Shown here one piece after another: positions 3,676 through 37,762 of a stretch of DNA of 40,145 nucleotides. Every line of letters begins with the position of its first letter. Positions within the stretch are counted from its first letter, which is position 1. The stretch comes from a virus, in the IMG/VR virus record IMGVR_UViG_3300021509_000003, one strand, 5' to 3'. The notes beneath the pieces were generated by a model. It searched no databases and was not told the DNA's origin. It saw only the letters and a list, made by a program, of their open reading frames with translations. Both the position numbers and the translations under genes were made by a program.

Positions 3676-3960
3676 TTATTCTCCTACATAATACATAGTA
3701 AAATCAAACCATTTTTCATTTCTAACATACATTGTTCCTTTTAAAGCATGCTCGTTTATTTTTTCTAAGACATCTCGCACAGGCCAATATTTATAGTGCA
3801 GTTCCATATCTTTAATTTTAAAATCTGCCAAAAATAATTCGCTCCCCCAAGGAAGAAAGTTTTTCCCACTATCTCCTTCTATTTTTTTGGTCAGGATGTG
3901 TGTTTCCCCGATGTAAACTTTCCAATATCCATCAAGTATTTTATTCATTTTATTTGACAA
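3676..3960 (-). CDS. Hypothetical protein
   Basis: 94-aa ORF tightly packed in the same operon. Confidence 0.4.
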   Translation of the reverse strand: MSNKMNKILDGYWKVYIGETHILTKKIEGDSGKNFLPWGSELFLADFKIKDMELHYKYWPVRDVLEKINEHALKGTMYVRNEKWFDFTMYYVGE

Positions 3961-4465
3961 TTTCCTTTTTAATTAACTTACCACCAGCAGCTTGAATTAT
4001 GCAGATAAATATTTCGGGCGTTACCAGCCACGGTTTGATGTGACTCCATCCAAATATCTTTACCAATGGAGCAACACAGCCTTCACTGCAAAAATATTGT
4101 CCTTCTTTTTCCTTTCTCCATTTAGTAAAAAGTCCAAAAGCCGCTATATAATCAAAATATGCTCCTTTATTGGCAAGCCCCTGCATAAAATTATGTATAA
4201 AAACTTGCTGTGCTTCAGAAACTTCCAATTTCCATATTTCATATTTACTTCCTTTAGGGTAGCCTTTTAAAAATGGCCTAATAGCCCATTTTACTTTAAA
4301 AATTTTCCAAATATTTTCTGGCCAACATTCTATGGCATAATCAGGTCCTGCCTGTTCGGCAGGAATTAAATAGGCAATGTGGCTGTATTCACTTTGTGTT
4401 TGATACTCAATTACTTTTGCCAACCAATCATTACCTTTTAAAGCAATATATTTAATTTCAGCCAT
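3950..4465 (-). CDS. Permuted papain-fold cysteine peptidase/amidase (YiiX/C92-like, NlpC/P60 superfamily)
   Basis: His-containing EYSHIAYLIP precedes Cys-containing YFCSEGCV, the permuted order of this family. Contains an in-frame copy of the 16-mer cctgcctgttcggcag. Confidence 0.45.
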   Translation of the reverse strand: MAEIKYIALKGNDWLAKVIEYQTQSEYSHIAYLIPAEQAGPDYAIECWPENIWKIFKVKWAIRPFLKGYPKGSKYEIWKLEVSEAQQVFIHNFMQGLANKGAYFDYIAAFGLFTKWRKEKEGQYFCSEGCVAPLVKIFGWSHIKPWLVTPEIFICIIQAAGGKLIKKEIVK

Positions 4466-4482
4466 TTGAAACCCGCAAAATG

Positions 4483-4519
4483 CCTGCCCGACGGCAGGCG
4501 GGCCTGCCCGCAGACGGGC
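4483..4519 (-). terminator. Two tandem GC-rich hairpins immediately 3' of gene 4519-5271
   Basis: cctgcccgacggcagg (4483-4498, 6-bp stem) and gcccg-caga-cgggc (4506-4519); a short U-tract follows on the minus-strand RNA. Confidence 0.5.
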
Positions 4520-5271
4520 TATACATTATAATCTTCTACTACATAAGGCTCACTCTGCCCGGAAGGAGTAACTAATGTTCCTTCAAATTCAAGAGTGCCA
4601 AAATCATCAGCTAAAAAGTCAATTTCTGAAGAAGGTGTAAATACTGCTTTATAGACACGCACCTTGCAGTTTTTCCCATTTGCCCAATTTTTGCCGTTTA
4701 AAACAAATGCACCCTGCACTGTAGGTTTCTTTGAACCTGCCACTTTTTGATATGTTTTTGCCTCATAGCTGTAGTCCACTTTTAAAACTTGTCCTTCTGT
4801 AATATCTCCGCTAGATAGTGCTTTTATCATTCCCATGTCGTAATCTACTACATAGTCTTCATTTTCTGTATATGTAGTGTCTCCGCCTTCATTTGTTACT
4901 ATTGGTGCTGGGTCTTTCTTCACTCTGTCGTGTGCAAGGGCTACATATTTATCTAGCTTTGCATTGATAGTCTCATCAGTAACAGAACCCTCGCTAACAT
5001 CTTGAAGTGATGCCTCTCCTAAAAGTGCCATAGCTAAAGTATCTTTATCAAAATCATCCAGCGTGAAACTTATTTTTGCAGGCTGATGTAAATAAACAGT
5101 ATCAAGTGCTTGGCCATATGTATCCTTCATTTTGGAAAGACGTTCCTTTTTTTCAGTTGCTTCCTGAATAGCAAATTTAGTAGCATTGCCAATTTGCACC
5201 CAACCTGTGCTATTGCCCTCATCGTCAAATCTATCAAACCAAAGGTCTCCAGCTCCTATAAATCCAGCCAT
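4519..5271 (-). CDS. Putative major tail (tube) protein
   Basis: 250-aa acidic Thr/Gly-rich ORF with GGAGG RBS, followed by hairpins. Size and position resemble lambda gpV-type proteins; no motif-level proof. Confidence 0.35.
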   Translation of the reverse strand: MAGFIGAGDLWFDRFDDEGNSTGWVQIGNATKFAIQEATEKKERLSKMKDTYGQALDTVYLHQPAKISFTLDDFDKDTLAMALLGEASLQDVSEGSVTDETINAKLDKYVALAHDRVKKDPAPIVTNEGGDTTYTENEDYVVDYDMGMIKALSSGDITEGQVLKVDYSYEAKTYQKVAGSKKPTVQGAFVLNGKNWANGKNCKVRVYKAVFTPSSEIDFLADDFGTLEFEGTLVTPSGQSEPYVVEDYNV

Positions 5272-5321
5272 TTATTTCCCCTCCTCTTATTTAGTTTTTT
5301 ATAGTTATTTTCTGCATTCTC

Positions 5322-6335
5322 CTATGGAACATAAATCCCTCCTTGTGTCTGCTTCCAAGGCACTTTCGTGTATATCATGCTATGTGGCAAGCCTCTTAAC
5401 ATGCGGTAGACTGGACTGCGATACATATTTTCACGGATTTCATCCGATGACCACGCACGGTTTTCAATAACAAGAGCAGCAATCAGGCCCTTAAAAGGGT
5501 ATTTAACAGTATGCAAAACATTTGCACCAACGAAGAGCTGTCTTTCGCTATTATCAATAGTATGTGGACCAATATTCAAACTTGCCTCTTCCAACCCATC
5601 TAAATAAACTTTCATATATGCCCCGTCATAAATCGCTGTAACATATATCAATCTCCCTTTAGGCAAAGTATATTCAACTCTTTTATATCCATCAGGATAA
5701 CCTAACCCATCAATATATAAAGAGAAATATTTTGTTACTAAATCATAATCCCCATCACCGTAAGAAGGCCTGTATTTACATACTATGTGACCTCTATCAA
5801 CTTGAGATATTACCCACACCCCTATTGTAATTCGATTAACAACAGCTAAGCTTGTGTCATCTCCGCAATCTACATAGCCACTATCTCCATCAATCTCAAA
5901 TCCCATTACCCCAGGGGTAACCATATATGGCCTTGCACCACCATGAGGCACACCGTGATTGCCGCTTCCTGACAAGTCAACCCACCCACTAGACCTACAA
6001 TCCAGTGGGTAGCATGATAAGTCCAAAACAGATTGTTTTTTACTCACTTTTTCAACTCCTATTACACCATTATTCACAATTACCTGCCAAATATCGCCAG
6101 CGAGGTCCCGAAGATAAAATTGCGTATCTGGCTGTGCTGTGGTATCCGCTAGAACCAGACGGCCATTGTCGATAGAAAGCACCCATGTAGTTGTTCCATC
6201 TTTATCGTTTATGACTGGATTAGATTCACTTTCAGCCTCCGTGTTTTCCTCTAGTTGCAGCTTGCCATTGATAACTTTCAGTTTCCAGTATTGTTCAACT
6301 GCTGCATCTTCTAGAGGATAATATTCCTTTATCAA
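5322..6335 (-). CDS. LamG/concanavalin-A-like lectin-fold domain protein
   Basis: C-terminal FKGLIAALVIENRAWSSDEIRENMY matches the LamG signature; upstream GD/ITIGVWV beta-sandwich pattern. Confidence 0.5.
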   Translation of the reverse strand: MIKEYYPLEDAAVEQYWKLKVINGKLQLEENTEAESESNPVINDKDGTTTWVLSIDNGRLVLADTTAQPDTQFYLRDLAGDIWQVIVNNGVIGVEKVSKKQSVLDLSCYPLDCRSSGWVDLSGSGNHGVPHGGARPYMVTPGVMGFEIDGDSGYVDCGDDTSLAVVNRITIGVWVISQVDRGHIVCKYRPSYGDGDYDLVTKYFSLYIDGLGYPDGYKRVEYTLPKGRLIYVTAIYDGAYMKVYLDGLEEASLNIGPHTIDNSERQLFVGANVLHTVKYPFKGLIAALVIENRAWSSDEIRENMYRSPVYRMLRGLPHSMIYTKVPWKQTQGGIYVP

Positions 6336-7825
6336 TTATTGCTCCTTCCTATTTCCACCCATCTATCTTCGACATAAACTAAGCTTAAAGTATCGTTTTG
6401 ACCCATGACAAAATCACCTGCCAATTCACTCACCCCTGCTGTATCGCTGAAATTGCATACATTAGCAGAAACATTCACAATCGTAACAACCGTTCCGTCT
6501 ATCACATCTGCCTCCCCCATAATAATGTCACAGCCATCTGCATCATTGCAGATTAACTTCACAGAGCTGGTTGAAGGAGTAAGAGTATAAGAAGCAGGAT
6601 TAGCATCGCCTGAGTCTGTAACAGTAACTTCGTCTGGGGACGAGCCGATGACTCCATTTACCTCTATACTCCTCAATTTTCTTCTGGTTGCAAAGTGGAC
6701 TAACGCCTCCCTCAATGTCACAACTTTAATACCTCTTTCCCTTGCCCAGTCGATAGTGTTTGCAATTCTCTCTTCAGTTAAAGTAGAGAGATTAGCATGA
6801 CCATACAACAAGCCAAGCTCGTTATTTGTGGCTATGGTATCCAGAAAATTTTGAAGCTCCGAATCACTCAGTTTGTCAGTTTCAAAACTTTTTCGAGGCA
6901 GGGCATAAAGCTCGTCAGTCCCAATAGGAAAAGAAACCCTTCCATCACCACCCTTACAAGCAGCCCTGTAAAAATGCGAGACCCAAACTCTCGCCTCTGG
7001 ATTCTCGCTATTGTAAGGATAAACAAAAGCTCCTATCCTCAAATCCATCTCAGACAAAATCCTTTTGGACTCATATAGCTCCTTGTATGCATAGTCCTCA
7101 TGAATCTTCAGAACTGCACCATCCGATACTTGATACGAATTCGCAAGCCCATTTTCAATCGTAACATAATTACCGTTGTCATCTGACCCTGTCCCAGTTA
7201 CCGTTACATTTTCAGGCCCTGCGTTGTCGTCCCAGACTCTGTAGACGTATCCAACTTTGATGGGGCTAAGATACTCTATATAGAGTTTGGTATCTCCTGT
7301 GTTCGCATCTTGGGTCAAATCAGTAGAATAGAAGGCAAGATGATTTAAGCCATGGCTCGCAATTTCCCAGCCCGCATCTTGCATCTCCCGCAGCTGATGA
7401 GGTAATATTCCTGACGGGCCTTCCATTCCATTGATGTTTATTGCTGCCACTGCAGGAACACCTTTCTCCTGGTGAATAGGATAAGCTTTCGTCCAGGTAG
7501 CCCTGACAGCGTCATCATAAACGATAACAAGCATAGGTCTTACCGAAAAATTCCCCAAGTTACAACACAAATCATTTATCAGCACTGAAGAATTTGAAAG
7601 AGAAAGTCGTTTCCATTCCGACGCACTGTTGCACAAGCCATCAGCAGTATCGCAGACGTATAAAACTTTATCGTCTTCTTCGTAACATAAATCACCTGCT
7701 CTACCATCTGTAATAGATGTGCAATCTGTCGTATGTGTTCTATAACGCCAAAAATACCAAGTGGCTGCACTAATAGATGTAACTAGAAACAGGATAAGAA
7801 TCAGTAAAGATAAAATTTTTTTCAT
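6332..7825 (-). CDS. Secreted polysaccharide deacetylase (CE4/NodB-homology domain) with Cys-rich N-region and C-terminal extension
   Basis: Signal/TM segment MKKILSLLILILFLVTSISA. NodB motifs IVYDDA (DD), ASHGLNH (HxxxH), VYPYNSE (xPY). Confidence 0.6.
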   Translation of the reverse strand: MKKILSLLILILFLVTSISAATWYFWRYRTHTTDCTSITDGRAGDLCYEEDDKVLYVCDTADGLCNSASEWKRLSLSNSSVLINDLCCNLGNFSVRPMLVIVYDDAVRATWTKAYPIHQEKGVPAVAAININGMEGPSGILPHQLREMQDAGWEIASHGLNHLAFYSTDLTQDANTGDTKLYIEYLSPIKVGYVYRVWDDNAGPENVTVTGTGSDDNGNYVTIENGLANSYQVSDGAVLKIHEDYAYKELYESKRILSEMDLRIGAFVYPYNSENPEARVWVSHFYRAACKGGDGRVSFPIGTDELYALPRKSFETDKLSDSELQNFLDTIATNNELGLLYGHANLSTLTEERIANTIDWARERGIKVVTLREALVHFATRRKLRSIEVNGVIGSSPDEVTVTDSGDANPASYTLTPSTSSVKLICNDADGCDIIMGEADVIDGTVVTIVNVSANVCNFSDTAGVSELAGDFVMGQNDTLSLVYVEDRWVEIGRSNN

Positions 7826-9562: not shown

Positions 9563-9583
9563 AAACAACCTCTCTTGCCTATC

Positions 9584-9637
9584 CCCGCCTGCCTGTCCCC
9601 GCCTGCCGTCGGGCAGGGGCAGACAGGCCTGCCTGTC
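9584..9637 (-). repeat. Composite GC-rich palindromic element between 9640-9999 and the next gene
   Basis: Contains cctgccgtcgggcagg (9602-9617) nested in a longer imperfect inverted repeat; same architecture as 36704-36752. Confidence 0.6.
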
Positions 9638-9639
9638 AG

Positions 9640-10032: not shown

Positions 10033-12390
10033 TTAAGCACCTGGATTCTTATATAAAGCTTTCCAGCTTATGGCTTTTGCGCCTGCTTCAATCCTTACCT
10101 TAAATTCTACGCCATCAACATGCCAGCCTTCCTTTTGTTCAAGAGTAGGGGCCTGTTTCCCATCCAGGAAGAAAATAGTTACAGTCTTTCCTTTTGGTCC
10201 AGCCACATACCAAGCAGTGCCAGCATCATCTAAGCGTCCATCACTAATAACCTTTAAGTTGTATTTACGAAGAATATTAGGTTTGGCCGATACTTTCCCA
10301 CCAGTAGTAGAAAAATCTACATATTGCATGCCAAGCAATTCTTCTACATCCATTCCATCTTCAATACGGACAATTATAAATTGTGGTCTAATGTGAAGTC
10401 TGCGTTTACCGCCAATGTCTTTTTGTTTAAGCATAGCTTTTATGGCTGCTTTAATGGTATCTGTGCTTGGGGCTGCCCCGGCGCCGGCTAAGTTACCATG
10501 ACTAGAATGAAAAAGTGCCACACCATCGCCCATAGTTGGGTTTGTGGTCAAAACTTTATACGCTAAATCGGCTATTTTTCGCCTGGCTGCTGCACCCATT
10601 TCCTTTGGGATTCCAGTTAAGGCATTTAAATCATCATTTATGATTGTTTGTCTTGTGATAGAGAAAAGCTTGCCATAGGTGGCAATTGAATACTTCTCTT
10701 GCTGTTCGCTAACCGTGCCATATTTGTATTCTGCCCCTTCTGGAATTTTATCCAGGTCATCAAATTCACCTGGGCGAACCAGTTTATTTTCTTTAAAATC
10801 GCTAACAGAACCTACACCGCACCATTCACGCCAAGTTTCTGGTTCTTCTTCAAAGCCCTGCATTAAGGCCTTGTTGGCTACATTTTGAAGGATAAGAGGA
10901 AAATCAGAGGAAGTGTGTGTAAAAGCACGTGCTACCATGTCCATTTTGCTTAAGCCTCTACATGGAATATTTGACCTGATAAGACACTCTCTAGCTATTT
11001 CTACCAGAGGACGGTTAGCAAAATCCTCAGCCCCGCTATCTTTAACCTCTTCAGCAGAGACAAAACCAACTCTTAAAAGCAATCCATTCTGAACGGCCCT
11101 ATTAAATTTATCTTTTTCATCCTTACCTGTTACAGGTTCACCAGTTTCCATCCTTCCAACTGGAGTATTTCTTTCAGCCAGTTTTTGAAGAATTAAATCT
11201 TTTGCCCTTTCCACGGTGTATTTTTGCTCAATCATCTCATCCATCAACTTCTCATCAATATTATGCATTTTGCAAAGAGACCTAATCTCCATTACTCGCT
11301 TGCGTTCTGCTTCTTCTCCTTTTTTCCTTGCTTCCTCTATCTCTTTTTGTATTTCTTCAGGATTTTTAATTTCTTCTTTTCTTTTTTCTTCTGCCATTGT
11401 TTTATCCTCCTTTTTATTTTCTTGTCCGACTGTTCGACCCACACCTACCGAGGCATCGGCAGGCACAGGAGTTAAAGAAAACTCAAAAACACTCCATCTT
11501 TGCGCTATGTATGCAGGCCCCTTAAATCCATTCCATTGCTCTTTTTCTTGCAGTTTGAGCCATTTATGAACTTGATATCCAACTGAAACGCCCCGTAATG
11601 TCTGATCTTTAATTTCTTGATATGCTTCCAGGGCCTTTTGTGTAGTGCCAAACTGAATTATGGCACGGCCTTTTTTGTCCTCTTCATCAAGCCAAATTTT
11701 TAAAGGTTTGGCCACTCTTTGATTTGGGTCATGATTTATCAAAATGCTGCCAACTTCTTTTATCGGTTTAAAATTAATAGCGTCTTTTGTATGAAGTAAG
11801 ATTTCTTTTCCATACCAGCGTTCTACTGGCTCTTCTGAGCTAAAGCTCACTTCTACAATGCGGTTTTCATCATCCAGGATGCCACGCATTTCACAAGGAA
11901 AAGTGCGCCGCATTCTGGCGTCAGTAGGAGGGAGGTCTCTTTCATCTTCACTAGTAGGAAGATATGAGTCAGCCTCAAAAGTATCTAGTTGTTTTTCAAC
12001 ATTTTTTTTAAGAGCTGGAGGTTCTTTCCCAAATTTTTCATAATATTTCACGATATGCTTATATACATCTTCTCTATCTTTATCTGGTATGTTTACTCCT
12101 TTCCTAGCCCCATTTAATACCTGCATAGCTAATCTAACGCCATGCCAAACAGCTTGTAATTCATCATTAATTACATCAGCAAATTTTAATTTATAACCTT
12201 GAAATTCTTGCTCATGTTCTGAATCATACCAAAAAAATGCCTTTCTAAATTTTTTCCAATCGATTTTATCTTTATCACCAGACCCATCGCTACTTGCCCA
12301 CTTCCGCACATTTTTTTCAGCTTCATCATGATGATATGGACGCTCTAAATCCTCACATATAGATAAATTAACAAATGGTGTTACCGGCAT
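10033..12390 (-). CDS. Fused prohead protease (HK97/S78-like) + coiled-coil scaffold + major capsid protein (HK97 fold, Mu gpT-like)
   Basis: Protease motifs INHD, LRGVSVGYQ, FEFSLTPVPADASVG; Glu/Lys-rich coiled coil in the middle; capsid-like motifs ALFHSSHGNL and RLHIRPQFIIV. One uninterrupted 785-aa frame with GGAGG RBS. Confidence 0.7.
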   Translation of the reverse strand: MPVTPFVNLSICEDLERPYHHDEAEKNVRKWASSDGSGDKDKIDWKKFRKAFFWYDSEHEQEFQGYKLKFADVINDELQAVWHGVRLAMQVLNGARKGVNIPDKDREDVYKHIVKYYEKFGKEPPALKKNVEKQLDTFEADSYLPTSEDERDLPPTDARMRRTFPCEMRGILDDENRIVEVSFSSEEPVERWYGKEILLHTKDAINFKPIKEVGSILINHDPNQRVAKPLKIWLDEEDKKGRAIIQFGTTQKALEAYQEIKDQTLRGVSVGYQVHKWLKLQEKEQWNGFKGPAYIAQRWSVFEFSLTPVPADASVGVGRTVGQENKKEDKTMAEEKRKEEIKNPEEIQKEIEEARKKGEEAERKRVMEIRSLCKMHNIDEKLMDEMIEQKYTVERAKDLILQKLAERNTPVGRMETGEPVTGKDEKDKFNRAVQNGLLLRVGFVSAEEVKDSGAEDFANRPLVEIARECLIRSNIPCRGLSKMDMVARAFTHTSSDFPLILQNVANKALMQGFEEEPETWREWCGVGSVSDFKENKLVRPGEFDDLDKIPEGAEYKYGTVSEQQEKYSIATYGKLFSITRQTIINDDLNALTGIPKEMGAAARRKIADLAYKVLTTNPTMGDGVALFHSSHGNLAGAGAAPSTDTIKAAIKAMLKQKDIGGKRRLHIRPQFIIVRIEDGMDVEELLGMQYVDFSTTGGKVSAKPNILRKYNLKVISDGRLDDAGTAWYVAGPKGKTVTIFFLDGKQAPTLEQKEGWHVDGVEFKVRIEAGAKAISWKALYKNPGA

Positions 12391-14174
12391 ATTATTCCCT
12401 CCCGCCTGCCTGTTTGCTCAACAGATAAGCCTACCTGCCTGTTCGGCAGATAGGTCTGTCCAATAGGCAAGCTATTTTTAGCCTTTTTTTCTTCTTGAGC
12501 CTTTGCCCAATTTTTGACCCATTGTTTGGCCTGGCTCACTGTCCATTTATCTTTATCAAAAATAAAAGAAATAATTTTTTTACAATCTATACAGTAACGG
12601 GCTTGTATTCCCTTTTTTTCACTGATTGTGATAGTGCGAATTTCATGACCTTTATGTTTTCCCTCTTCTCCAGGAACCGGCACATGAATTTTATTTTCTG
12701 TTACTTCAACTCGAGTTTGAATATCCTGAAATTTTACTTGCATTTGTGATATATCAGTGAGACCTAAATCATTTAAATATTGTTTTTCTTTTGCTCTTTG
12801 ATTGGCTATTTCTTGCCAATCTTTACCTTTAACAGCACATTCATCCGCCAAGCTAGTTAAACCAAGTTGCAGTTCTAACTTCTTTGCCTGAGCTTCTTTC
12901 AATGGGTCAACCCAATCAAAACCTTTGAAAATCCAGCGGTGTTTCAGCCAATTTTCAGGAGCCTTAATAAATCCCTGAACCTGCAAATAGCCGCTCACGA
13001 TGCCATATTTCACAAAGTCTTCCCAGATAGGTTGGAGAAAATATCTTTCAAGTGCTTTCCGGAATGGAAGCATATAATCCCGCAGTTCTAATTCACTATG
13101 CCGAGTAGAAGAATAATTTACATCTGATTTATCACCACTTATTTGTTCATATGAAAGATTTACGCCTCGGCCCATGCCCCGCAAAATAATTTTTACAAAA
13201 TCTGGGAAAGTGCTGCCTGGACGTTTAGGATTGATAACTTCTATTTCTTCTCCTGGGCCAAGATGTTCTACCATTCCAGGAGCTATCTCTATTTCTCTTT
13301 CTTTTGTTTCTGTATTTTGAGTGCTAGTTTGCATGCGTCCCCATATATCAGATGTCTTTATAATTATTCCAAAACAGGCAGCTACTTTGGCAGACATTAG
13401 TTCTGCTTCTAAAAGTTCTGAAAGGTGATAAGCGAGGGGAATAACAGGAGCTAAAAGTGGAATGCCCATCAATTGTCCAGGACGGCGAAAAGGAGAAAAG
13501 TGAATAATATCTTGGGCAGGAATGCGAATGGATTGTTGTTTCAAAATGAATGGATTAGAAATATCTACTTTCCAGAAATGATAAGCAACTATTTTACCTG
13601 TTTGGTCTATCTCAAAACCATTCCAGTTCCAATTATCCTTTTTAGGCGTGCCCATACCACATAAACGGCTATATTCCAGTGCTTCAAGACAAAAAGGGAA
13701 ATCTCTGGATTTATCTATAACTTTGTGGAAAAAAATGCCTCCATCTAAAAATAATTTTAAAATTGCCAGCCGTTCCAGGTCTCCAAAATGAAATTGGTCG
13801 TAATAATCGGCTACTCGTGCCCACTGTTTAAATACATTCTCAGCCTTAGAATTAAATTGTTCGTTATCTGTGAGAGCCTGTGGTGTGCTGCCTCCACCAA
13901 TCATGCGGTTAACAATCAGGTCGATACTGCCACGAACAAAAGATTCATTCCAATATAGATAATTGGCTCTAGCTCTGACTGTTTGCAGGTCTGAGAAATT
14001 ATCATTTGGACCTTCTGCGCTGGTAGTCCAATATGAAGACATGCGGTCTTTAGAAGCAGCTTTTAAATGCCTGCGAACTACTTTTTGAAGATATTCCCGC
14101 TTTGCCTTCCATTTTGGGAAAGCTGCCCAAAAAAAGGCGTCCAGGGCTTTTGAAATGGATTTTAAAATGTTCAT
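12381..14174 (-). CDS. Portal protein, lambda gpB family
   Basis: LSYEQISGDKS... and VKGKDWQEIANQRAKE align with lambda gpB VSYEQLSRNY... and KRGDDYQEIFAQQVRE. Follows a gpW-like gene with ATGA overlap. Confidence 0.85.
   Translation of the reverse strand: MNILKSISKALDAFFWAAFPKWKAKREYLQKVVRRHLKAASKDRMSSYWTTSAEGPNDNFSDLQTVRARANYLYWNESFVRGSIDLIVNRMIGGGSTPQALTDNEQFNSKAENVFKQWARVADYYDQFHFGDLERLAILKLFLDGGIFFHKVIDKSRDFPFCLEALEYSRLCGMGTPKKDNWNWNGFEIDQTGKIVAYHFWKVDISNPFILKQQSIRIPAQDIIHFSPFRRPGQLMGIPLLAPVIPLAYHLSELLEAELMSAKVAACFGIIIKTSDIWGRMQTSTQNTETKEREIEIAPGMVEHLGPGEEIEVINPKRPGSTFPDFVKIILRGMGRGVNLSYEQISGDKSDVNYSSTRHSELELRDYMLPFRKALERYFLQPIWEDFVKYGIVSGYLQVQGFIKAPENWLKHRWIFKGFDWVDPLKEAQAKKLELQLGLTSLADECAVKGKDWQEIANQRAKEKQYLNDLGLTDISQMQVKFQDIQTRVEVTENKIHVPVPGEEGKHKGHEIRTITISEKKGIQARYCIDCKKIISFIFDKDKWTVSQAKQWVKNWAKAQEEKKAKNSLPIGQTYLPNRQVGLSVEQTGRREGIICR
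12401..12460 (-). repeat. GC-rich palindromic element at the portal/capsid junction
   Basis: gcctgcctgtt (12404-12414) and cctgcctgttcggcag (12434-12449); lies in the 3' tail of the portal ORF and upstream of the capsid RBS. Confidence 0.55.
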
Positions 14175-15475: not shown

Positions 15476-17317
15476 TTATCGAAGCCACCCTGGCCTCCTG
15501 GACAACCAAGAATTTTTTAAATGGCGTCTTTGTTGTTGAATTATCTGTTGTGTCTGTTGTGGTGGAGATTCTGTTATAATAGGTTGTAAATATCGCACTT
15601 GAAGATGGTCCGCAGCACAAAAAGCATATACAGAAGCGTCTAAATAGTGATTTTGAGTTGCTACTTGCACCCACTCCTCATAATACCGCAACCCTTTTCT
15701 AATTCTTCTCTTTTCCTCAGCTATTATTTGAGTTGCGTAATCCATACCAGTAGCTTTGTGTAAATTCCAACTGCCTGATTGTCCACTTTCTATTTGAAGT
15801 TTTCTATTGATAGCATCTTTATAATAATCGGTGTTAATCAGAATAAGGCGTAATCCGCCGGGAATAGGTTTATTTTTACCTGGATATTTATCAATAATGC
15901 TTTCACGAAAAGGCACGCCACTCGTTTTAGTGCTCATGCCTTTGATTGCATATACAATACCTCTCCCATTGCGGCGCACCCATTCATAAACTTCATCTGT
16001 GCGATGACCACCGCTGTCAATAAAAGCACGCATAATAGGAATAGTTTTATCGTCCAAACGGTAGGCAGAATAAAACAAAATAAGTTCAAGTTCTTCCCAA
16101 TTATGGGCGAATCCATATCTAATCATCCATGTGGTTAAATCTAAATCATTAGCCCAGGCATGGATGACATAATAAAAACCATCTTCTTGAGTATCTACCC
16201 CAGCAGTGAGAGCCACAGCTTGTGGTGGAACTACTCCAGGGTCAAGATTTCCTCGCAAGCATAAAATTTCTTCTTCTTTACGTTTTTCTATAACTTCTTT
16301 CCAAGGCTCTGCTAAACGACTATTTACAAAATCCATCAGAAGAGCTGGATCATCTTTTGCTTCCAAAAATTCAGCCGCAATTTCTCCCCAAGTAACAAAA
16401 GGAGAATATAAACCAGATAAATGAAATCCTACCTTCCTTCTTTTTGTTGATTTTTCTTCTACAATTTCCCATTTTCCTTGGGTCAACATTTCTTGTTTTT
16501 CACTTTCTTTTATATGCGCATGACATTTTTCACATTCATACCAGGCAATATCTCGAATAATTTCAGGGTCCTTCTCTTCTTTAGGCCACTTAATGTTTTG
16601 AAATTGCAAAAATTGGTATTCTCCACAATATGGACAGGGAACAGCATAACGATATATCACATTACAAGATTGTAATTGCCTCCAAATATTCCCTGTCTCA
16701 AGAGTAGGTGTACTCGTATAAATAATTTTTTTAAAACTTTTAGTATATGTGCTGGTTCTTTTTTTTGCTAAAGCAATTGGGTCGGCTTCTTTGCCAGAAA
16801 ATGGTGGATATTTATCTATTTCATCTAAGATTAGATAGCGTATAGGACGTGAAGATAAAACAGCCGGGGAATTTGACCAGCCTAAAAAAACTGTCATAGA
16901 TTGAAATTTCATTTCTAAAAGCTGGAAGTCAAAAGCGTTTGGAGTTTTCCTATCTCGCAGAACACTACAAGCATCTATACTTGGCTGTAATCTATTTCTA
17001 GAAAAACCCTCTGCTACATCTTGAGTAGGAAAGACAAAAAGAAGTGGACCAGGGTCTTGATGTATAACATATCCAATAAAATTAATTTCTGCTTCTGTTT
17101 TCCCTAATTGAGCAGCGGCGCAAAATACAATTTCTTCTACTTCTATATCGCAAAAAGTATCCATAATAGTACGTAAATATGGAGTTCTTTCTGTTCTCCA
17201 AGGACCTGGCTCTTTTGATGATCTAGGCACAAGCACACGATAGCGGTCAGCCCATTCACTTACTGTGATACCTTCAGGCAATTGAAGAACTCTTTTTTCT
17301 CGTTCAGTCAAATTCAT
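15476..17317 (-). CDS. Terminase large subunit, lambda gpA family
   Basis: Blocks shared with lambda gpA: VSEWAD, CPYCGEYQFLQF...YECEKCHAHI (gpA ACPHCGEEQYLKF...YLCEHNAC), LYSPFVTW (gpA YSPFTTW), LDASVYAFCAA (gpA LDCFVYALAA). Confidence 0.9.
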   Translation of the reverse strand: MNLTEREKRVLQLPEGITVSEWADRYRVLVPRSSKEPGPWRTERTPYLRTIMDTFCDIEVEEIVFCAAAQLGKTEAEINFIGYVIHQDPGPLLFVFPTQDVAEGFSRNRLQPSIDACSVLRDRKTPNAFDFQLLEMKFQSMTVFLGWSNSPAVLSSRPIRYLILDEIDKYPPFSGKEADPIALAKKRTSTYTKSFKKIIYTSTPTLETGNIWRQLQSCNVIYRYAVPCPYCGEYQFLQFQNIKWPKEEKDPEIIRDIAWYECEKCHAHIKESEKQEMLTQGKWEIVEEKSTKRRKVGFHLSGLYSPFVTWGEIAAEFLEAKDDPALLMDFVNSRLAEPWKEVIEKRKEEEILCLRGNLDPGVVPPQAVALTAGVDTQEDGFYYVIHAWANDLDLTTWMIRYGFAHNWEELELILFYSAYRLDDKTIPIMRAFIDSGGHRTDEVYEWVRRNGRGIVYAIKGMSTKTSGVPFRESIIDKYPGKNKPIPGGLRLILINTDYYKDAINRKLQIESGQSGSWNLHKATGMDYATQIIAEEKRRIRKGLRYYEEWVQVATQNHYLDASVYAFCAADHLQVRYLQPIITESPPQQTQQIIQQQRRHLKNSWLSRRPGWLR

Positions 17318-18579: not shown

Positions 18580-19185
18580 TTATTTTTTGTTTGTATAATA
18601 ATGATAACTGTGCCACCATTGATTTATAAATGTCTTTTCTGTTTTTTCTTTTATAATTGGCCAAATCCGGCGGTTTTGAAATAGCTTAGATATAGTTATG
18701 CCAGTCGCTTTCAGTTCTACAATAGGCGTCCGTTTTTTCCCTTTTCTTCTAAATACTCTTTGGCCTAACCAAGATCCTGCTTTCACCATGCGATAAATCC
18801 ATTTACCAGTTTTCATCTTTCTGACTCTTATAGGTAAATATCCACCAATAAATGCACTTTTTATAAATGTTCTTTTACTTCCTTTTTTTATCTTGACCGT
18901 AACTCCTTTTTTTATTTGTCTTGGAGCAAAATATTTAAAAGGAATGGGACCACCTATTATTGTCAATGCAGCTTCAAAATTCCCTCGTGTTGCTTTTTTT
19001 ATAGTTGCTGCCTTTTTAACATCTCCGGCTTTAATATTATATTGTTTGCGAATTTCTTTACTTCCGGTGGTAAACATAGTTTTAGCGGCTCTATTCAAAG
19101 CCGCTACTGTTGCTTGATTAACTGCCCAAGGATTCATTAAAGCTTCTGCAGTAGATATATTTTTTATTTTTAATTCTAAAAACAT
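18580..19185 (-). CDS. Hypothetical basic protein
   Basis: 201-aa Lys/Arg-rich ORF; no recognisable motif. Confidence 0.4.
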   Translation of the reverse strand: MFLELKIKNISTAEALMNPWAVNQATVAALNRAAKTMFTTGSKEIRKQYNIKAGDVKKAATIKKATRGNFEAALTIIGGPIPFKYFAPRQIKKGVTVKIKKGSKRTFIKSAFIGGYLPIRVRKMKTGKWIYRMVKAGSWLGQRVFRRKGKKRTPIVELKATGITISKLFQNRRIWPIIKEKTEKTFINQWWHSYHYYTNKK

Positions 19186-19700
19186 TTCTCTACGAAAAAT
19201 ACATGTTGACCAATTATTTTAGTCATTCGCATCCCTTTTATCCATTCAGGCATAGCCCAATAAGTTGCGATATAATGTGTGGCTCCTGTTGTAATATCTT
19301 GGCATCCTTTCATAACTGCTAGTGCACACGTATAACAATCAAACAGTGCCCCTTCTCCTAATAATGTTTTATCAAGCCGATTAAAAATTTCTTCTGTAAA
19401 TTTCTGCTCTTCTTTTTTTCGCTGTATAGGTGGGAGTGACTCCTTAAAATATTCAATTTTTTTTGCAATGCGTTCTAATAACTCCCTATTTGGGTCCCCA
19501 GGATTAAAACAGCTAAATTGATAAGGTTTAAGAATTTCAATTTTGTAATTTGTCTTATTTTTCATAACTCTATTTCTAACCACGCAGCCAACAGCTAAAC
19601 GGCCACAATGATCTAATCCTCTAGCTTCTCCAAAGATAACAAGGGTCAAAAGTTCTAATTCATTTAATTTATCTAACATTTTGTCCCCCTTTTTCCCCAA
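19176..19700 (-). CDS. SleB-like cell wall hydrolase (endolysin candidate)
   Basis: LTLVIFGEARGLDHCGRLAVGCVVRNRV ... YQFSCFNPGDP matches the SleB/CwlJ hydrolase signature. No signal peptide. Confidence 0.55.
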   Translation of the reverse strand: MGKKGDKMLDKLNELELLTLVIFGEARGLDHCGRLAVGCVVRNRVMKNKTNYKIEILKPYQFSCFNPGDPNRELLERIAKKIEYFKESLPPIQRKKEEQKFTEEIFNRLDKTLLGEGALFDCYTCALAVMKGCQDITTGATHYIATYWAMPEWIKGMRMTKIIGQHVFFVEKCF

Positions 19701-21678: not shown

Positions 21679-22428
21679 TTAATCAGAATATGGCATAATC
21701 CGCCCATATTTTTCACTTCCTTTAAAATCAGTGTTAGGGGACATTTCCTTTTTTTGTTGTTTATCCATTGCCTTCCCGTCTGTCCGACAGGTAATCCCTA
21801 GCGACTTCTTTATTTCCCACACTATCTGTGTCTCTAGCGACCTTAGTTCTTCAGCTGCTTTCTGTTCTAACTTCTCGAATGTCTCCGGGGATACGCTAAA
21901 ATCAACCCAAATCCGATATTTACTTACAGCAGGTCCTTGTTTTCGCTGTATAGGTGGTAATTGGCCCCTCTTTTTCAACCTTTCATAACAAGCAGCGCAA
22001 AGCCCTCTAGCCTTATGGGTCTTTCTCCGCCCACATTCTGCACAAATTACTATTTTCTTACTTTCTGCCATTATCTTCTCCTTTCTCTTATAAACTTCTT
22101 CACAGAGCACTTTCCACTCTGTGCAATCTTCACATACCCCAGGCATAGGAAATATATTAGGGTTTGTCCATTGGCCAATTTCTTTCAGCCTGGGCCTTTT
22201 TCTGTTTGCCTCACATTGTTTAGGACTAATCCGTCCTAAACCATGCGGGCATATGAAAGTATTGGCCTCTAGCCAACGTATCTTATCTTCGTCAACCTGC
22301 CCAACTCCTGAACCACTTCTTGGCGGGTTAGATGTATCTAAATTTCCTTTTATTGGTTGATATCCTTTTTCTCTCTTATATTTCTTTGCTTTCCCCAAAG
22401 GATGCTGCTCTTTACTCAATTCAATCAT
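21679..22428 (-). CDS. Cys-rich hypothetical protein (multiple CxxC pairs)
   Basis: 249-aa ORF with CEDC, CAEC and CAAC pairs; basic. Confidence 0.4.
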   Translation of the reverse strand: MIELSKEQHPLGKAKKYKREKGYQPIKGNLDTSNPPRSGSGVGQVDEDKIRWLEANTFICPHGLGRISPKQCEANRKRPRLKEIGQWTNPNIFPMPGVCEDCTEWKVLCEEVYKRKEKIMAESKKIVICAECGRRKTHKARGLCAACYERLKKRGQLPPIQRKQGPAVSKYRIWVDFSVSPETFEKLEQKAAEELRSLETQIVWEIKKSLGITCRTDGKAMDKQQKKEMSPNTDFKGSEKYGRIMPYSD

Positions 22429-22717: not shown

Positions 22718-22731
22718 TTCTACTTTTTTAG

Positions 22732-22817
22732 CGGAGGGGGCAGGATTTGAACCTGCAGAGTTTTTAAAAACTCGTGGTTCTCAAGACCACTGCTTTAAAC
22801 CACTCGGCCACCCCTCC
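22732..22817 (-). tRNA. tRNA-Ser (anticodon UGA), type II with long variable arm; CCA not encoded
   Basis: Manual fold: acceptor GGAGGGG/CCCCTCC, anticodon stem GTGGT/ACCAC with loop CTTGAGA, variable arm GAGTTTTTAAAAACTC, T-arm GCAGG-TTCAAAT-CCTGC, discriminator G. D-stem is weak (GCC/AGC). Confidence 0.8.
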
Positions 22818-23238: not shown

Positions 23239-23760
23239 TTAAGGAGGTGTAGGTATGCCAGCCAACTTTTGTCCTTTATTTTTCCTTAATGCTTCCACCA
23301 TAAGCCATAATTTTGTTAAAGCAGTTAATGCCTCGTAATATTCTTTTTCAAACTGTTTGCTTTCGGCATTAGAAACATTTCCATCTGCTACTACCTCAAC
23401 AAACTTATTCAGACACTCAGTGCTCTCTTTGAGTGCCTGGCTAACAAGTATTAAAGCTTTCTTATCCACTTTCCCTTCTATTTTGGGCTGTGGCACTAAA
23501 AGAAATCCGGCTTGATTAACTAAATATTCCAAAACTTCTTTTCCAACTTGTTTAGTCAAATAAGGCAAAAGAAAAGCAGGCAAATTATTGAAAGGATTTT
23601 CAGGATTGAGCCATTTATACATAGTATCTGGGCGAATGCCCAGGTGGGAAGCTACTCCATTGATTGGTAATCTTTTCAAATAGAAAACATCATTTAAAAA
23701 CCGCTTGAATTGTCTTGACCATTCTACATGATCCCAATTAATGTAGCGGATATTACCCAT
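23239..23760 (-). CDS. HTH DNA-binding regulatory protein
   Basis: INGVASHLGIRPDTMYKWL HTH near the N-terminus; overlaps the Cro-like gene by 8 nt. Confidence 0.4.
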   Translation of the reverse strand: MGNIRYINWDHVEWSRQFKRFLNDVFYLKRLPINGVASHLGIRPDTMYKWLNPENPFNNLPAFLLPYLTKQVGKEVLEYLVNQAGFLLVPQPKIEGKVDKKALILVSQALKESTECLNKFVEVVADGNVSNAESKQFEKEYYEALTALTKLWLMVEALRKNKGQKLAGIPTPP

Positions 23761-23986
23761 TATCTACTTCCTTGTGAAATTTGGATTTATGATAACAATT
23801 TTTTCTGGTAATCTTTTGTAAAAGATGAGGAAAATCTTGTGGTGATGCCCAAAATTCCAATGGAAATTCAGAAATCATTGCAAGTTTTCGAGCAACAGTG
23901 AGGGATGGTTTCTTGCGGTTGTGCAAAATATCATTTAAATGCTGGGGTGTTATCCCAGCTTTTAATGCTATGTCTTTTTGTTTCAT
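23753..23986 (-). CDS. Cro-like XRE-family HTH regulator
   Basis: DIALKAGITPQHLNDILHNRKKPSLTVARKLAMI is an XRE HTH; divergent from the repressor gene. Start lies 10 bp from the -10 hexamer, so the mRNA is probably leaderless. Confidence 0.6.
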   Translation of the reverse strand: MKQKDIALKAGITPQHLNDILHNRKKPSLTVARKLAMISEFPLEFWASPQDFPHLLQKITRKNCYHKSKFHKEVDNG

Positions 23987-23995
23987 TGTAAAATG

Positions 23996-24035
23996 ATTAT
24001 ACAGCTATTAGTTTAATTTGTCAAGGGGGAAATTA
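23996..24035 (-). promoter_or_regulatory. Perfect consensus sigma70-type promoter on the minus strand (copy 1 of a 40-bp exact repeat)
   Basis: Minus strand reads TTGACA (plus 24019-24024), 17-nt spacer, TATAAT (plus 23996-24001). Identical 40-mer at 28110-28149. Confidence 0.6.
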
Positions 24036-24988: not shown

Positions 24989-26014
24989 TTACCCTGTGGG
25001 TCTTTTTAGTTTTTTAATTGCATTAATTAAATGTTCTTTTGTTAAATGTGAATAAATAAGTGTAGTAGATATATCACTATGCCCTAAAAGTTCTTGCACT
25101 GTTCTTAAATCCACCCCCGCCATGATAAGTTTGCTAGCAAAAGTATGTCTAAGACAATGTAAAGTGTAACCTTCAAGACCTGCTTGTTTAAACCAGGTAG
25201 AGAATTTTTTACTTACATATTTAGGGTCAAAACTTTTAAATATTTTGCCAATTTTAATAACTTCCGGATCATTATTCATTTCTTGGATAATTTCTTTCAA
25301 TTCAGAACTAATTGGTACATATCTTATTTTCTTGGTTTTGGTTTTTCTAAAAAGGATAAAACCATCTTTTATGTCTTGCCAATTAAGATTAAGCACTTCG
25401 TTTCTTCTGGCTCCTGTATTTAGATAAAATTCAAATAGCCAACGCCATTGTGTGTCTTTGATTTGCTTTCTCACAGCATTTATTTGTTTATCTGTAAGAA
25501 ATTTAAGCGGTTTTTCCTGGATTGATAGTTGTTTATAACCTGATAATTGATTATACTTTAAATATCCCCATTCAACTGCTTTTGAAAAAGCAGCCTTTAT
25601 GGTGCGGATGTCTATATTACATGTAGCTCTGGATTGGCCTTGTTTAAGCCTCATGTTAACTAATTTATCTAAATGTTTCTTATTGATTGCTTTAATATCT
25701 AAATTGCCAGTAATCTGTCTGAGTAATCTAAAAGCATTCTGAGCAATACGATAGCTGGCTTCAGATAAATATTTTTCAATATAGTCAAGATATTCTTGAA
25801 CAAAATCGTCTAGTCTAACAGTTCTTTCAAGAAGGCTAAGTTTTCTTAATAAATATTCCCTTTTTGCTTTGGTGAAAATAACCTGGGCCTCAGCTTTATT
25901 TTTTGTGCCGAGGCTTTTTTTCCGCCGTCGGCCATTCTCAGACCAATAAATATACCATACGCCATTGTCTCTCTTTTTTAGGCGCATGATTATGCTTAGC
26001 CTATCAGGAATCAT
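24989..26014 (-). CDS. int: Tyrosine site-specific integrase
   Basis: C-terminal catalytic region HCLRHTFASKLIMAGVDLRTVQELLGHSDISTTLIYSHL with the R...HxxR...Y signature. Confidence 0.9.
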   Translation of the reverse strand: MIPDRLSIIMRLKKRDNGVWYIYWSENGRRRKKSLGTKNKAEAQVIFTKAKREYLLRKLSLLERTVRLDDFVQEYLDYIEKYLSEASYRIAQNAFRLLRQITGNLDIKAINKKHLDKLVNMRLKQGQSRATCNIDIRTIKAAFSKAVEWGYLKYNQLSGYKQLSIQEKPLKFLTDKQINAVRKQIKDTQWRWLFEFYLNTGARRNEVLNLNWQDIKDGFILFRKTKTKKIRYVPISSELKEIIQEMNNDPEVIKIGKIFKSFDPKYVSKKFSTWFKQAGLEGYTLHCLRHTFASKLIMAGVDLRTVQELLGHSDISTTLIYSHLTKEHLINAIKKLKRPTG

Positions 26015-27811: not shown

Positions 27812-28001
27812 AATATTTTACCAATTCCAACACTACATTTATATGTAAAATTTTATGTTGATAAGAAGGCAGGAATGAATTTGCATAAACCTTTCTCACA
27901 AATTTAACATAGTTTTTATTCTTGATTCCCCTAAAAGCTTGATATCCTGTTAACTGAGCATATGTTTTACATGCCTTTTTCTCTTTATAAGTCAACTTCA
28001 T
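27801..28001 (-). CDS. Hypothetical small protein, first gene downstream of promoter repeat copy 2
   Basis: 66-aa ORF, 11-nt overlap with the next gene. Confidence 0.35.
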   Translation of the reverse strand: MKLTYKEKKACKTYAQLTGYQAFRGIKNKNYVKFVRKVYANSFLPSYQHKILHINVVLELVKYYEK

Positions 28002-28109: not shown

Positions 28110-28149
28110 ATTATACAGCTATTAGTTTAATTTGTCAAGGGGGAAATTA
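28110..28149 (-). promoter_or_regulatory. Perfect consensus sigma70-type promoter (copy 2 of the 40-bp repeat)
   Basis: Identical 40-mer to 23996-24035; about 110 bp upstream of the start at 28001. Confidence 0.55.
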
Positions 28150-28243: not shown

Positions 28244-28260
28244 CCTGCCCGCAGACAGGC
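28244..28260 (-). terminator. GC-rich palindrome at the end of the tail operon
   Basis: cctgcccgcagacaggc; differs at one position from the 17-mer at 4503-4519; followed by UUU on the minus-strand RNA. Confidence 0.4.
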
Positions 28261-28276
28261 AAATATGAAGGTGTTT

Positions 28277-28606
28277 TTACGCTGGTTCATTGCAACTCAT
28301 AAGTTTTTTGAATATACTAGGCTTGCATGGATAAAATCCATCTTCACCTTTAACTATATAGTCTCCTATATTGGCTTTCCTTGCTCCTTTAGGTGTAAAT
28401 ATCTTCAATCCATTTTTTCTCACCACGTTTTCAAACTCTTCCCAAGTCCACTTTCTTGCTGAGGGGTGCAATCCTGTAAAGCCAATAACTTCTCTTAAAT
28501 TATCACCAGTCCATTGTATTGCCTCTATTACAATCGGCTTTTTTCTATACTTTTTAATTGGCATAATGTTCCTCCTGTTAAAGGTATTTTTACGCTGCTC
28601 CTTCAA
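28277..28606 (-). CDS. Hypothetical protein (last gene of tail operon)
   Basis: 109-aa ORF. Confidence 0.4.
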   Translation of the reverse strand: MKEQRKNTFNRRNIMPIKKYRKKPIVIEAIQWTGDNLREVIGFTGLHPSARKWTWEEFENVVRKNGLKIFTPKGARKANIGDYIVKGEDGFYPCKPSIFKKLMSCNEPA

Positions 28607-35528: not shown

Positions 35529-35689
35529 TTATGCAAATCTCGTTATATATGCCCTATATCCTTTTAAATCTCTCTTTGTTCTTTCTCCAATACGAGCCTT
35601 TTTATTTGCTCGCAACCCATCAAAATTGCGAGCAGCTCTTTTACCACAGCAAGTTTTTTTATCAGCTCTTAATCCTTTATATTCTGCCA

Positions 35690-36691: not shown

Positions 36692-36701
36692 TATTGCCTC
36701 C

Positions 36702-37049
36702 TTACCTGCCTGTTCCCTGCCCGACTGGCAGGCGGGGGCAGACAGGCTTGCCTAGTTTTAAAACATTTTTATATGGAAAATATGAAAGACTATAAAAGAC
36801 CTCAAGCACTTTCTCTCCTTTAAATATGTATCCCCTAACACTATCTCCGAACACTCCTCCAAATTCCACTCCTATTATTTGTCCTTTTCCACCCATACTT
36901 GCTATTGCATGCCTTACAAAATAATAGCTATCTGCATTCGTGATTTTTTTGCCATTTAGTTCAAGCTCAACAATAGGTTTAGAAATATCAGGAAAATAAC
37001 CATCTTTTTCTGTCCATACACTACCATCTATTAACGTTGCTTTCCACAT
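36702..37049 (-). CDS. Hypothetical tail protein
   Basis: 115-aa ORF with AAGGAG RBS; its last 12 codons run through the palindromic element. Confidence 0.4.
   Translation of the reverse strand: MWKATLIDGSVWTEKDGYFPDISKPIVELELNGKKITNADSYYFVRHAIASMGGKGQIIGVEFGGVFGDSVRGYIFKGEKVLEVFYSLSYFPYKNVLKLGKPVCPRLPVGQGTGR
36704..36752 (-). repeat. Composite GC-rich palindromic element (paralogue of 9584-9637)
   Basis: Contains cctgcccgactggcagg (36716-36732); flanks parallel those of 9584-9637. Confidence 0.6.
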
Positions 37050-37062
37050 ATTTTTTCTCCTT

Positions 37063-37105
37063 CCTGCCCCCGACTATCGGCAAGTTATGTTACCCAAAGG
37101 GCAGG
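37063..37105 (-). repeat. GC-rich inverted repeat CCTGCCC...GGGCAGG spanning the stop of 37085-37708
   Basis: cctgccc (37063-37069) and gggcagg (37099-37105), with inner palindrome ccgactatcgg. Confidence 0.5.
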
Positions 37106-37708: not shown

Positions 37709-37720
37709 TTTAATCCTCCC

Positions 37721-37760
37721 CGCCTGCCTGCCTGCCAGTTGGGCAGGTTAAGCAGGCCTT
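37721..37760 (-). repeat. GC-rich palindrome CCTGCC-agttg-GGCAGG between tail genes
   Basis: cctgccagttgggcagg at 37731-37747, preceded by gcctgcctg. Confidence 0.55.
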
Positions 37761-37762
37761 AG

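Follow-up and report, generated by a model that had tools for sequence, protein, structure and literature searches.

The DNA analysed here, a viral stretch of 40,145 nt (IMG/VR record IMGVR_UViG_3300021509_000003; hereafter the window), has the gene content of a temperate siphovirus-like phage according to Pfam and PHROG searches, and carries several copies of a GC-rich 16-mer, CCTGCCTGTTCGGCAG, in DNA of 30-43% G+C. Nearly all of its genes are encoded on the minus strand, and on the coding strand the 16-mer reads CTGCCGAACAGGCAGG. The genes include those for the large terminase (15476-17317), the portal (12381-14174), a protease/major head fusion (10033-12390, with its ATG at 12390), the major tail protein (4519-5271), the tape measure (38512-40143) and a tyrosine integrase (24989-26014), as well as a cII-like regulator, a SleB-type cell wall hydrolase and a DnaD-like loader. 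The hydrolase, together with strong GGAGG sites, suggests a spore-forming Firmicute as the host. A preliminary description of the window had treated the 16-mer as a unit and as a single motif. The real unit is a hairpin of 20-21 nt, of which the 16-mer is the 3′ part, and the window contains two sister units, named SF1 and SF2, at a minimum of 12 sites (at least), most of them intergenic.

SF1 and SF2 in the phage genome

The 16-mer had been reported as exact at 4347-4362 and 12434-12449, with a 15/16 copy at 32423-32438 and a related palindrome at 33439, and these occurrences had been regarded as too many for chance. All four were found again, the last as a 14/16 match covering 33439-33454, and two additional matches were located, one of 14/16 at 37731-37746 and one of 13/16 on the other strand at 36717-36732. 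The resulting six matches compare with 0.07 expected from dinucleotide-preserving shuffles, so that the excess over chance is real. Related patterns are over-represented as well: CAGGCAGG is present 11 times, in all 11 cases on the coding strand (0.69 copies expected), hairpins of the form CTGCC-N3-5-GGCAG occur eight times (0.06 expected) and a stricter pattern with six pairs also eight times (0.025 expected). Furthermore, five of the 13 most GC-rich islands of the window consist of words of this family.

A scan of metagenomes with the 16-mer recovered at least 119 loci, and one among the matches listed was this phage. At 42 of the 121 metagenome sites listed the 16-mer was preceded by CCTGT, which lies outside the query and would be expected about 0.1 times by chance; SF1 was therefore defined as the 21-nt unit CCTGTCTGCCGAACAGGCAGG, which on the coding strand is organised as CCTG-TCTGCC-GAACA-GGCAGG. 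SF2 was recognised from GC-rich blocks present both in the window and in a contig of another phage (L108/L019). It has the form CCCGCCTGCC-NNNN-GGGCAGG with a variable loop, as in CCCG-CCTGCC-GGACG-GGCAGG, and its commonest form in viral contigs is CCCGCCTGCCGGACGGGCAGG. The two units share the same layout, that is, a 4-nt tail followed by the first arm of a 6-bp stem, a 5-nt loop and the second stem arm, the base of the stem being T-G in SF1. They are identical at 17 of 21 positions and consist of CCTG/CAGG quartets, with two pairing registers possible. Neither contains a stop codon, all six frames being open, and together with the length of 21 nt this means that insertion into a gene preserves the reading frame.

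Family words occupy most of the longer gaps in the late operon, at 37709-37762, 37050-37084, 36692-36770, 9569-9639, 4466-4518 and 1267-1284, and as RNA these GC-rich gaps are predicted to fold into nested hairpins whose ends reach, or come close to, the ribosome-binding site of the gene that follows. Two composite blocks resolve exactly into nested SF1 and SF2 units (copies are on the minus strand unless stated otherwise). At 36705-36746 an exact SF1 is split between CTGCC and GAACA, into CCTGTCTGCC and GAACAGGCAGG, by a 21-nt SF2 (36716-36736); this block overlaps the final codons of the open reading frame (ORF) at 36702-37049 and ends at the ribosome-binding site of a 333-aa gene. At 9588-9627 the loop of an SF1-like 20-mer, CCTGTCTGCC plus GACAGGCAGG, is split by a reverse-oriented 20-nt SF2 (9598-9617), and a half unit at 9618-9637 precedes the composite. 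The exact reverse complement of the nested SF2 is found at 4483-4502, between the major tail and 171-aa genes, as the 20-nt copy CCCGCCTGCCGTCGGGCAGG, SF2 being present in both orientations within the late operon. A related hairpin, CCCGTCTGCGGGCAGG (4503-4518), immediately follows the stop codon of the major tail gene and is altered in the 96%-identical relative L321. A degenerate unit, CTTGCCGATAGTCGGGGGCAGG, is located between two genes at 37063-37084, the hairpin CCTGCCCAACTGGCAGG followed by (CAGG)n-CGGGG runs into a ribosome-binding site at 37718-37747, and a half unit, GGCAGGCAGGGAGG (1272-1285), overlaps a stop codon and the next ribosome-binding site. Another related hairpin, GCCTGTCTGCGGGCAGG (28244-28260), lies in non-coding DNA beyond ORF 28277-28606.

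The portal-tail copy is an SF1 with one substitution (CCTATCTGCCGAACAGGCAGG) plus TAGG, at 12430-12454 within the last 20 portal codons, and forms a 10-bp hairpin (RNA fold z = -4.1), the four added bases extending the stem. Its 16-mer is located 44-59 nt upstream of the next start codon (ATG at 12390), in a stretch resembling the other intergenic elements, and a half unit, ACAGGCAGGCGGGAGGG (12397-12413), runs into the ribosome-binding site of that gene, the protease/major head fusion. In a scan for terminators only this portal-tail copy passed, as 12454-12430; the copy at 4483-4502 is followed by ATTTTG and the other copies have no T-run. The promoter/terminator scan revealed no promoter-like sites adjoining the window copies.

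Copies inside genes and in other genomes

Copies inside coding sequences had been said to keep the reading frame and to encode a short AEQAG-like peptide. This was true for three of them: the SF1-type 17-nt hairpin CCTGCCGAACAGGCAGG at 4347-4363 within the 171-aa ORF (3950-4465), read PAEQAG in the context PAEQAGP; the SF1-type 17-nt copy CTTGCCGAACAGGCAGG at 32423-32439 within a 553-aa ORF, read AEQAG in the context AEQAGV; and a 21-nt SF2 in reverse orientation at 33435-33455 (coding strand CCTGCCCGACAGGCAGGCGGG), in frame in a 914-aa ORF and read PARQAGG. It was not true for the portal-tail copy, which is read LPNRQVG and lies outside the AEQAG frame. The hairpin in the 171-aa ORF (RNA fold z = -4.15) is kept in L321. 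The label of permuted papain peptidase given to the 171-aa protein was not reproduced, as the protein has no Pfam match and its PHROG matches are weak. A decayed SF2, CCCGTCTGTCCGACAGG, is present on the plus strand within a 249-aa ORF (21775-21791). For the copy in the 914-aa ORF, an internal translation start at 33444 was considered and rejected, since the following ATG is out of frame and opens an ORF of 7 codons.

The exact SF1 21-mer occurs at 120 loci or more (at least) in bacterial and archaeal genome assemblies, compared with about 0.3 expected, as estimated from the size of the collection. The flanks are unrelated, except for a C after the unit at 89 of the 124 sites listed and a purine before it. 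The loci listed belong mostly to Bacteroidota, among them the isolates Arenibacter sp. P308M17, Galbibacter sp. EGI 63066, Gelidibacter japonicus, Aquiflexum lacus and Aequorivita xiaoshiensis; other labels include Balneolaceae, Defluviitaleaceae, Moraniibacteriota, Anaerolineae, Desulfobacterales, Nitrospirota and Phycisphaerae, among more. A sequencing adapter or assembly artefact was ruled out by the isolate genomes and by assemblies made with differing methods. The exact 21-mer was not found in IMG/VR. SF1 arms with a 2-3-nt centre, most often CCTGTCTGCCGACAGGCAGG, were identified there in 49 viral stretches of 38-68% G+C. For SF2 the number is 35, copies facing either way and reaching as many as 10 within 14 kb. 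Among GenBank phages, the window has no near relative and the units themselves gave no useful match.

Nesting was also observed elsewhere, with SF1 inside CCTGCCTGCCGG^CAAGGCAGG in L311 and L274 and SF2 inside SF2 in L325 and L353. In Bacteroidales, one of three orthologous loci contains an extra 19-nt family member (L296 compared with L206 and L282). The flanks pair across the insertion point with 5.5 pairs versus 4.6 in mismatched controls (p = 0.008), which suggests that hairpin loops are favoured as sites, though not required. Intergenic copies have no preference with respect to the orientation of the flanking genes (14:13), which speaks against a function as sense-strand RNA in bacteria. 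The 93 ORFs adjoining SF1 copies represent 107 ordinary Pfam families, and no enrichment in transposase families was seen among them by Pfam.

Between 64% and 76% of the SF1 copies are outside long open frames. SF1 lies within such a frame at 30 of the 124 listed genome sites, 21 of which read LSAEQAG, one frame of six, and SF2 does so in 24 of 43 distinct copies from low-GC viral contigs. The usual peptides are LSAEQAG for SF1 and PARQAGG or PARPAGG for SF2. That is, the AEQAG and PARQAGG of the window are ordinary readings of the units, and not a protein motif. SF1 recurs at one codon boundary (GAGCG^CAAGC) in the conserved DITER/K linker of PAS sensor kinases, on contigs of different phyla (loci L210, L216, L223, L233, L256, L270, L276 and L280), and DUF6090 proteins have it repeatedly in their N-terminus. 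The recurrence in the PAS linker suggests either that the sequence there is a favoured target or that copies survive again and again at a site where the protein is permissive. What the preliminary description put forward as selection on the nucleotide sequence itself is better described as the spread of a selfish repeat followed by filtering, such that only in-frame, stop-free and benign readings survive within genes.

A separate kind of repeat was noticed in another IMG/VR record (IMGVR_UViG_3300021498_000001; L054), where an array at 6005-6866 comprises at least 14 units with a period of 36 nt, each made up of a conserved AGCGAGCC and a conserved (A/C)AACCAT with variable stretches between. 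The array comes directly after a 307-aa ORF (5051-5974) whose only match is a weak one to Transposase_20, and no Nop-like domain was found by Pfam. The array resembles the recently described tandem interspaced guide RNA (TIGR) arrays.

Gain and loss between close relatives

The five residues PAEQA are present in the 171-aa protein of the window and in its 96%-identical relative, and are missing from five homologues at 42-62% identity. Phage relatives sharing the 171-aa gene but differing elsewhere are also without the motif. For the copy in the 914-aa ORF, L080, which has 93% DNA identity to the window over 4.6 kb, lacks the 21 nt at 33435-33455 with clean boundaries: the empty site reads GGAAC followed directly by GAAAAT, and the window has CCTGCCCGACAGGCAGGCGGG between the two, with no duplication. 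Conversely, some 450 nt downstream, L080 contains a 45-nt GC-rich insert of family words, which follows TATTGGCAG at a point where the window is empty. In L320 (99.6% identical) the 914-aa gene is arranged as in the window, and the 21-mer of 33435-33455 is also found, with other flanks, in L333 and L335.

Intergenic copies vary in the same way. L321 is without the SF2 at 4483-4502, about 22 nt being missing. In L068 (98% identical), CCTGTCTGCCGACAGGCAGG is uninterrupted at the place of the window's nested SF2 (9598-9617), and a few bases beyond this SF1 variant there is a different insert, about 30 nt long. The difference between the window and L068 at 9569-9639 is explained by two separate insertions, the MAFFT alignment being misleading there. 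At the position of the decayed copy at 21775-21791, the mosaic relative L333 has an intact CCCGCCTGCCTGTCGGGCAGG. The turnover of copies between near-identical phages argues against a required recognition site.

The preliminary description had proposed that homologues of the host proteins be aligned, and had offered three readings of the 16-mer: a protein recognition site, an RNA structure or a small inserted palindromic element. The alignments revealed an insertion in the 171-aa protein, an indel in the 914-aa protein and no indel in the 553-aa protein, and homologues do not share the peptide, so that there is no conservation at the protein level. With two of the three AEQAG-type copies being insertions relative to homologues, and with identical units between unrelated flanks in many other genomes, it is the inserted palindromic element that is supported. 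For the 553-aa protein, two relatives were found among 5.8 billion proteins and no more distant homologue in the databases searched; in IMG/VR neither the 553-aa nor the 914-aa protein has relatives beyond the same phage.

Some further differences between these relatives were observed. A comparison of L080:1-3015 with window 32784-35528 shows that the 914-aa protein has a homologue in L080 whose N-terminal part is longer and unrelated, some 150 aligned residues at the start differing and the remainder being more than 95% identical, which looks like a module exchange in a tail protein. In the L080 homologue of the 553-aa protein, 6 residues (DPGKGK) are inserted and 4 are missing near the C-terminus. 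L333 and L335, mosaic relatives, are viral contigs from the same sample series that carry the SF2 variant of the window, and their only matches to the window are two modules, each about 500 nt long and 88% identical, 19185-19683 (SleB-like hydrolase) and 21743-22275 (249-aa ORF). A 53-nt direct repeat (35452-35504 and 35557-35609; 89% identical, 105 nt apart) sits where the 53-aa and 914-aa ORFs meet, and was seen through secondary BLAST hits of L029 and L320.

Probable mobile hairpins, alternatives and known repeats

From the distribution of the copies, we consider it probable that the 16-mer belongs to a family of GC-rich hairpin repeats of 20-21 nt that act as non-autonomous selfish mobile DNA. 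The units behave like some of the smallest mobile DNA, rather than like a signal that the phage needs. They would be copied into new sites with a target duplication of 1 nt at most, often landing in the loop of an existing hairpin, including that of another copy, which would produce the nested composites; in this phage they would have accumulated in short late-operon gaps as well as in three or four genes. Since the phage encodes no transposase or HUH enzyme besides the tyrosine integrase (Pfam and PHROG), the copying agent would be supplied in trans, probably by the host. The combination of a tail and a hairpin might, at a guess, point to an enzyme acting on folded single-stranded DNA, as do the RAYT/IS200-type HUH enzymes on repetitive extragenic palindromic (REP) sequences. 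Any effects on phage mRNA, through hairpins near ribosome-binding sites and stop codons, would then be a secondary consequence. We commit only to a selfish hairpin repeat mobilised in trans, and not to a particular enzyme. A bolder version, in which SF1 and SF2 form one 21-nt superfamily that is mobile at present across several bacterial phyla and their phages, carried between hosts by phages and copied by a widely conserved host activity with no linked transposase, is advanced only tentatively, as we think it rather less likely than its opposite. If true, SF1 and SF2 would be the smallest horizontally spreading mobile DNA described, with a length divisible by three and no stop in any frame as a built-in design for harmless insertion into genes.

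Several observations weigh against mobility. No mobilising enzyme was identified in the phage or among the ORFs adjoining SF1, and neither a target-site duplication nor an excision footprint was evident. Some of the cross-phylum labels of SF1 come from metagenome bins, possibly with mis-binned contigs, and the preference for hairpin loops is statistically modest. The copy in the 553-aa ORF is not an indel relative to L080, whose 90%-identical protein has GCAAAACAGGCAGG, read AKQAG, with two substitutions. The indel in the 914-aa ORF lacks an outgroup, precise deletion from L080 being the formal alternative to insertion. At 21775-21791 the window and L333 differ on both stem arms, which could reflect selection for pairing, or else conversion by another member of the family. 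Finally, five intergenic copies end a few bases from a ribosome-binding site and are predicted to form stable RNA hairpins, for which a role in expression is possible.

The last two points lead to the alternative that survives best, although we regard it as unlikely, namely that selection maintains the copies in the late operon, those within genes included, because they function as RNA: they would serve as intercistronic stabilisers, as processing sites or as attenuators, or would modulate the initiation of translation. The stable nested hairpins that immediately follow stop codons and closely precede ribosome-binding sites would fit such elements, as would the terminator-like copy at 12454-12430, the possible compensatory change at 21775-21791, the outer stems with G-U pairs that can pair in the transcribed sense only, and the confinement of all 11 CAGGCAGG words to the coding strand. 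However, copies are gained, lost and rearranged between genomes that are 93-99% identical, SF2 is found in both orientations within the operon, and a T-run is missing after most copies. Moreover, the units occur in hundreds of unrelated contexts without orientation preference relative to genes (14:13), as well as inside ordinary bacterial genes, and have no Rfam match at E-values up to 10. A regulatory role as a secondary effect within the late operon is conceivable all the same.

Less probable still is an origin without any dedicated mobility, in which template switching, slippage or gene conversion would recurrently generate the units from (CCTG)n/(CAGG)n-like words and recombination would homogenise them. 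The quartet build with its two pairing registers could be so explained, and two insertion sites do follow a pre-existing GGCAG, while the two substitutions at the 553-aa site bring the window closer to the consensus than its relative. But the insertion at 33435 has no GGCAG seed, the nested copies have exact unit boundaries, and an identical 21-mer, loop included, cannot arise independently at so many loci across phyla.

We find it very unlikely that the units are recognition sites for a protein, be it repressor sites scattered over the genome in the manner of mycobacteriophage stoperators, a site for a late activator or for packaging, or a mimic of the CRISPR-repeat hairpin, even though their hairpin form, strong over-representation and strand bias could be expected of such sites. 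The stem-loop of the type I-F CRISPR repeat, which we take to be CTGCCGTACAGGCAG, is one base from the motif, the likeness being confined to the 15-nt stem-loop with its 5-bp CTGCC/GGCAG stem and 5-nt loop. Some phages are known to encode solitary repeat units that inhibit CRISPR (PMC10651486). Yet the boundaries and flanks of the units are unlike those of the type I-F repeat, and Rfam, including its CRISPR repeat families, gave no match at E-values up to 10. In contrast to RNA anti-CRISPRs (Racr), the units have no promoter of their own and are found within genes and bacterial chromosomes; in-frame copies in genes and copies in the chromosomes of many phyla do not fit an anti-CRISPR or a phage operator, and the sites differ between close relatives. 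Two further candidates were rejected as well: a promoter for a phage RNA polymerase, as the phage encodes none (Pfam and PHROG), and a DNA uptake sequence or Chi-like site, as the unit is a hairpin of variable orientation. Conservation of an AEQAG peptide, suggested by three copies read in one frame as similar peptides, or mere chance, can practically be set aside, because the segment is missing altogether from homologues, the host proteins are mutually unrelated, the same DNA occurs at non-coding positions and in another frame, and chance would yield the 0.07 matches given above.

Among known systems, the closest described in behaviour to these selfish hairpin units appear to be the small dispersed repeats (SDRs) that Elhai et al. 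reportedly described in 2008 from heterocyst-forming cyanobacteria. These (families SDR1-8) are said to be near-identical sequences of 21-27 nt with unrelated flanks, located in and between genes, sometimes nested, with no enzyme of their own and moving in a way that was not known. According to a citing paper, they are confined to Nostocaceae. The units described here are likewise near-identical over 20-21 nt between unrelated flanks, nested (36705-36746, 9588-9627, L311, L274, L325 and L353) and present within genes, and they too have no element-encoded enzyme; the difference is that they occur in Bacteroidota, Firmicutes, other phyla and phages, the hosts found not being cyanobacteria. The comparison concerns behaviour as described.

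REPs are short (20-40 bp), GC-rich, imperfect palindromes with a GTAG or CGTC tag at one end, mostly located between genes and now and then within them, forming RNA hairpins and varying in distribution between strains; the RAYT proteins that mobilise them, of the IS200/IS605 family, act on folded single-stranded DNA (PMC3733652). Like REPs and REPINs, the units are hairpin-forming palindromes (20-21 nt, 6-bp stem) with a tail at one end, and have many dispersed copies with unrelated flanks, including the sites in the window. The tail and hairpin, the lack of target duplication and the preference for hairpin loops would also be in keeping with an IS200/IS605-REP system. Unlike REPs, the units have no GTAG or CGTC tag, their tails being CCTG (SF1) and CCCG (SF2) and the other end GGCAGG; the exact unit is common to several phyla, whereas REPs are species-specific; a quarter to half of the copies are within open reading frames; and a RAYT was seen neither in the phage nor enriched beside copies. 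Rickettsia palindromic elements (RPEs) are in-frame inserts in genes that stay functional (summarised in PMC3733652), and the units resemble them in being inserted in frame; RPE-1 is about five times longer (roughly 100-150 bp) and restricted to one genus, compared with 21 nt and 5-7 residues in other taxa for the units. Intrinsic terminators differ in having a T-run, which is mostly missing after the GC-rich hairpins here. The mobile GC clusters of yeast mitochondria are palindromes of about 30-60 nt in AT-rich DNA that are polymorphic between strains. They share with the units the spread of GC-rich palindromes through AT-rich DNA, mostly between and sometimes within genes; they differ in belonging to an organelle, in sequence and size, and in the absence of cross-phylum sharing. 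Literature searches with the unit sequence strings returned nothing relevant, and keyword searches only general papers on REPs, MITEs and RPEs. What would be new, compared with these known small repeats, is the exact unit across phyla and phages together with its gene-tolerant design.

It is this combination, with a way of moving that is now testable, that makes the units of interest. If they do move, the little-studied class of very small mobile repeats would extend from one cyanobacterial family to many phyla and phages, and cultured Flavobacteriia and a temperate phage would provide a tractable system for learning how a 21-nt DNA is copied. For annotation, the units add protein inserts of 5-15 residues rich in G, A, P, Q and R, extend or shift ORF ends, mimic terminators and regulatory hairpins, and inflate the apparent number of conserved motifs in AT-rich phage genomes. 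For phage evolution, they are fast-evolving markers that separate near-identical phages.

A few additional features of the window were recorded. Its ends (1-127 and 40019-40145) overlap by about 127 nt when compared with the near-identical contigs L029 and L099, which shows that the genome is circular, or circularly permuted, and that its assembly has a repeat at the ends. A tRNA-Ser gene (anticodon TGA) is located on the minus strand at 22731-22817, in the early region of the phage; it was the only match in an Rfam search of the window at gathering and E-value thresholds, and the GGCAGG word within its acceptor/T-arm is a coincidence. Two perfect TTGACA-17-TATAAT promoters are present on the minus strand, at 28110-28138 upstream of small ORFs at 28001 and at 23996-24024 upstream of ORF 23753-23986. 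The two are embedded in identical sequence over about 40 nt (tttcccccttgacaaattaaactaatagctgtataat), and the pair looks like a duplicated early or immunity promoter.

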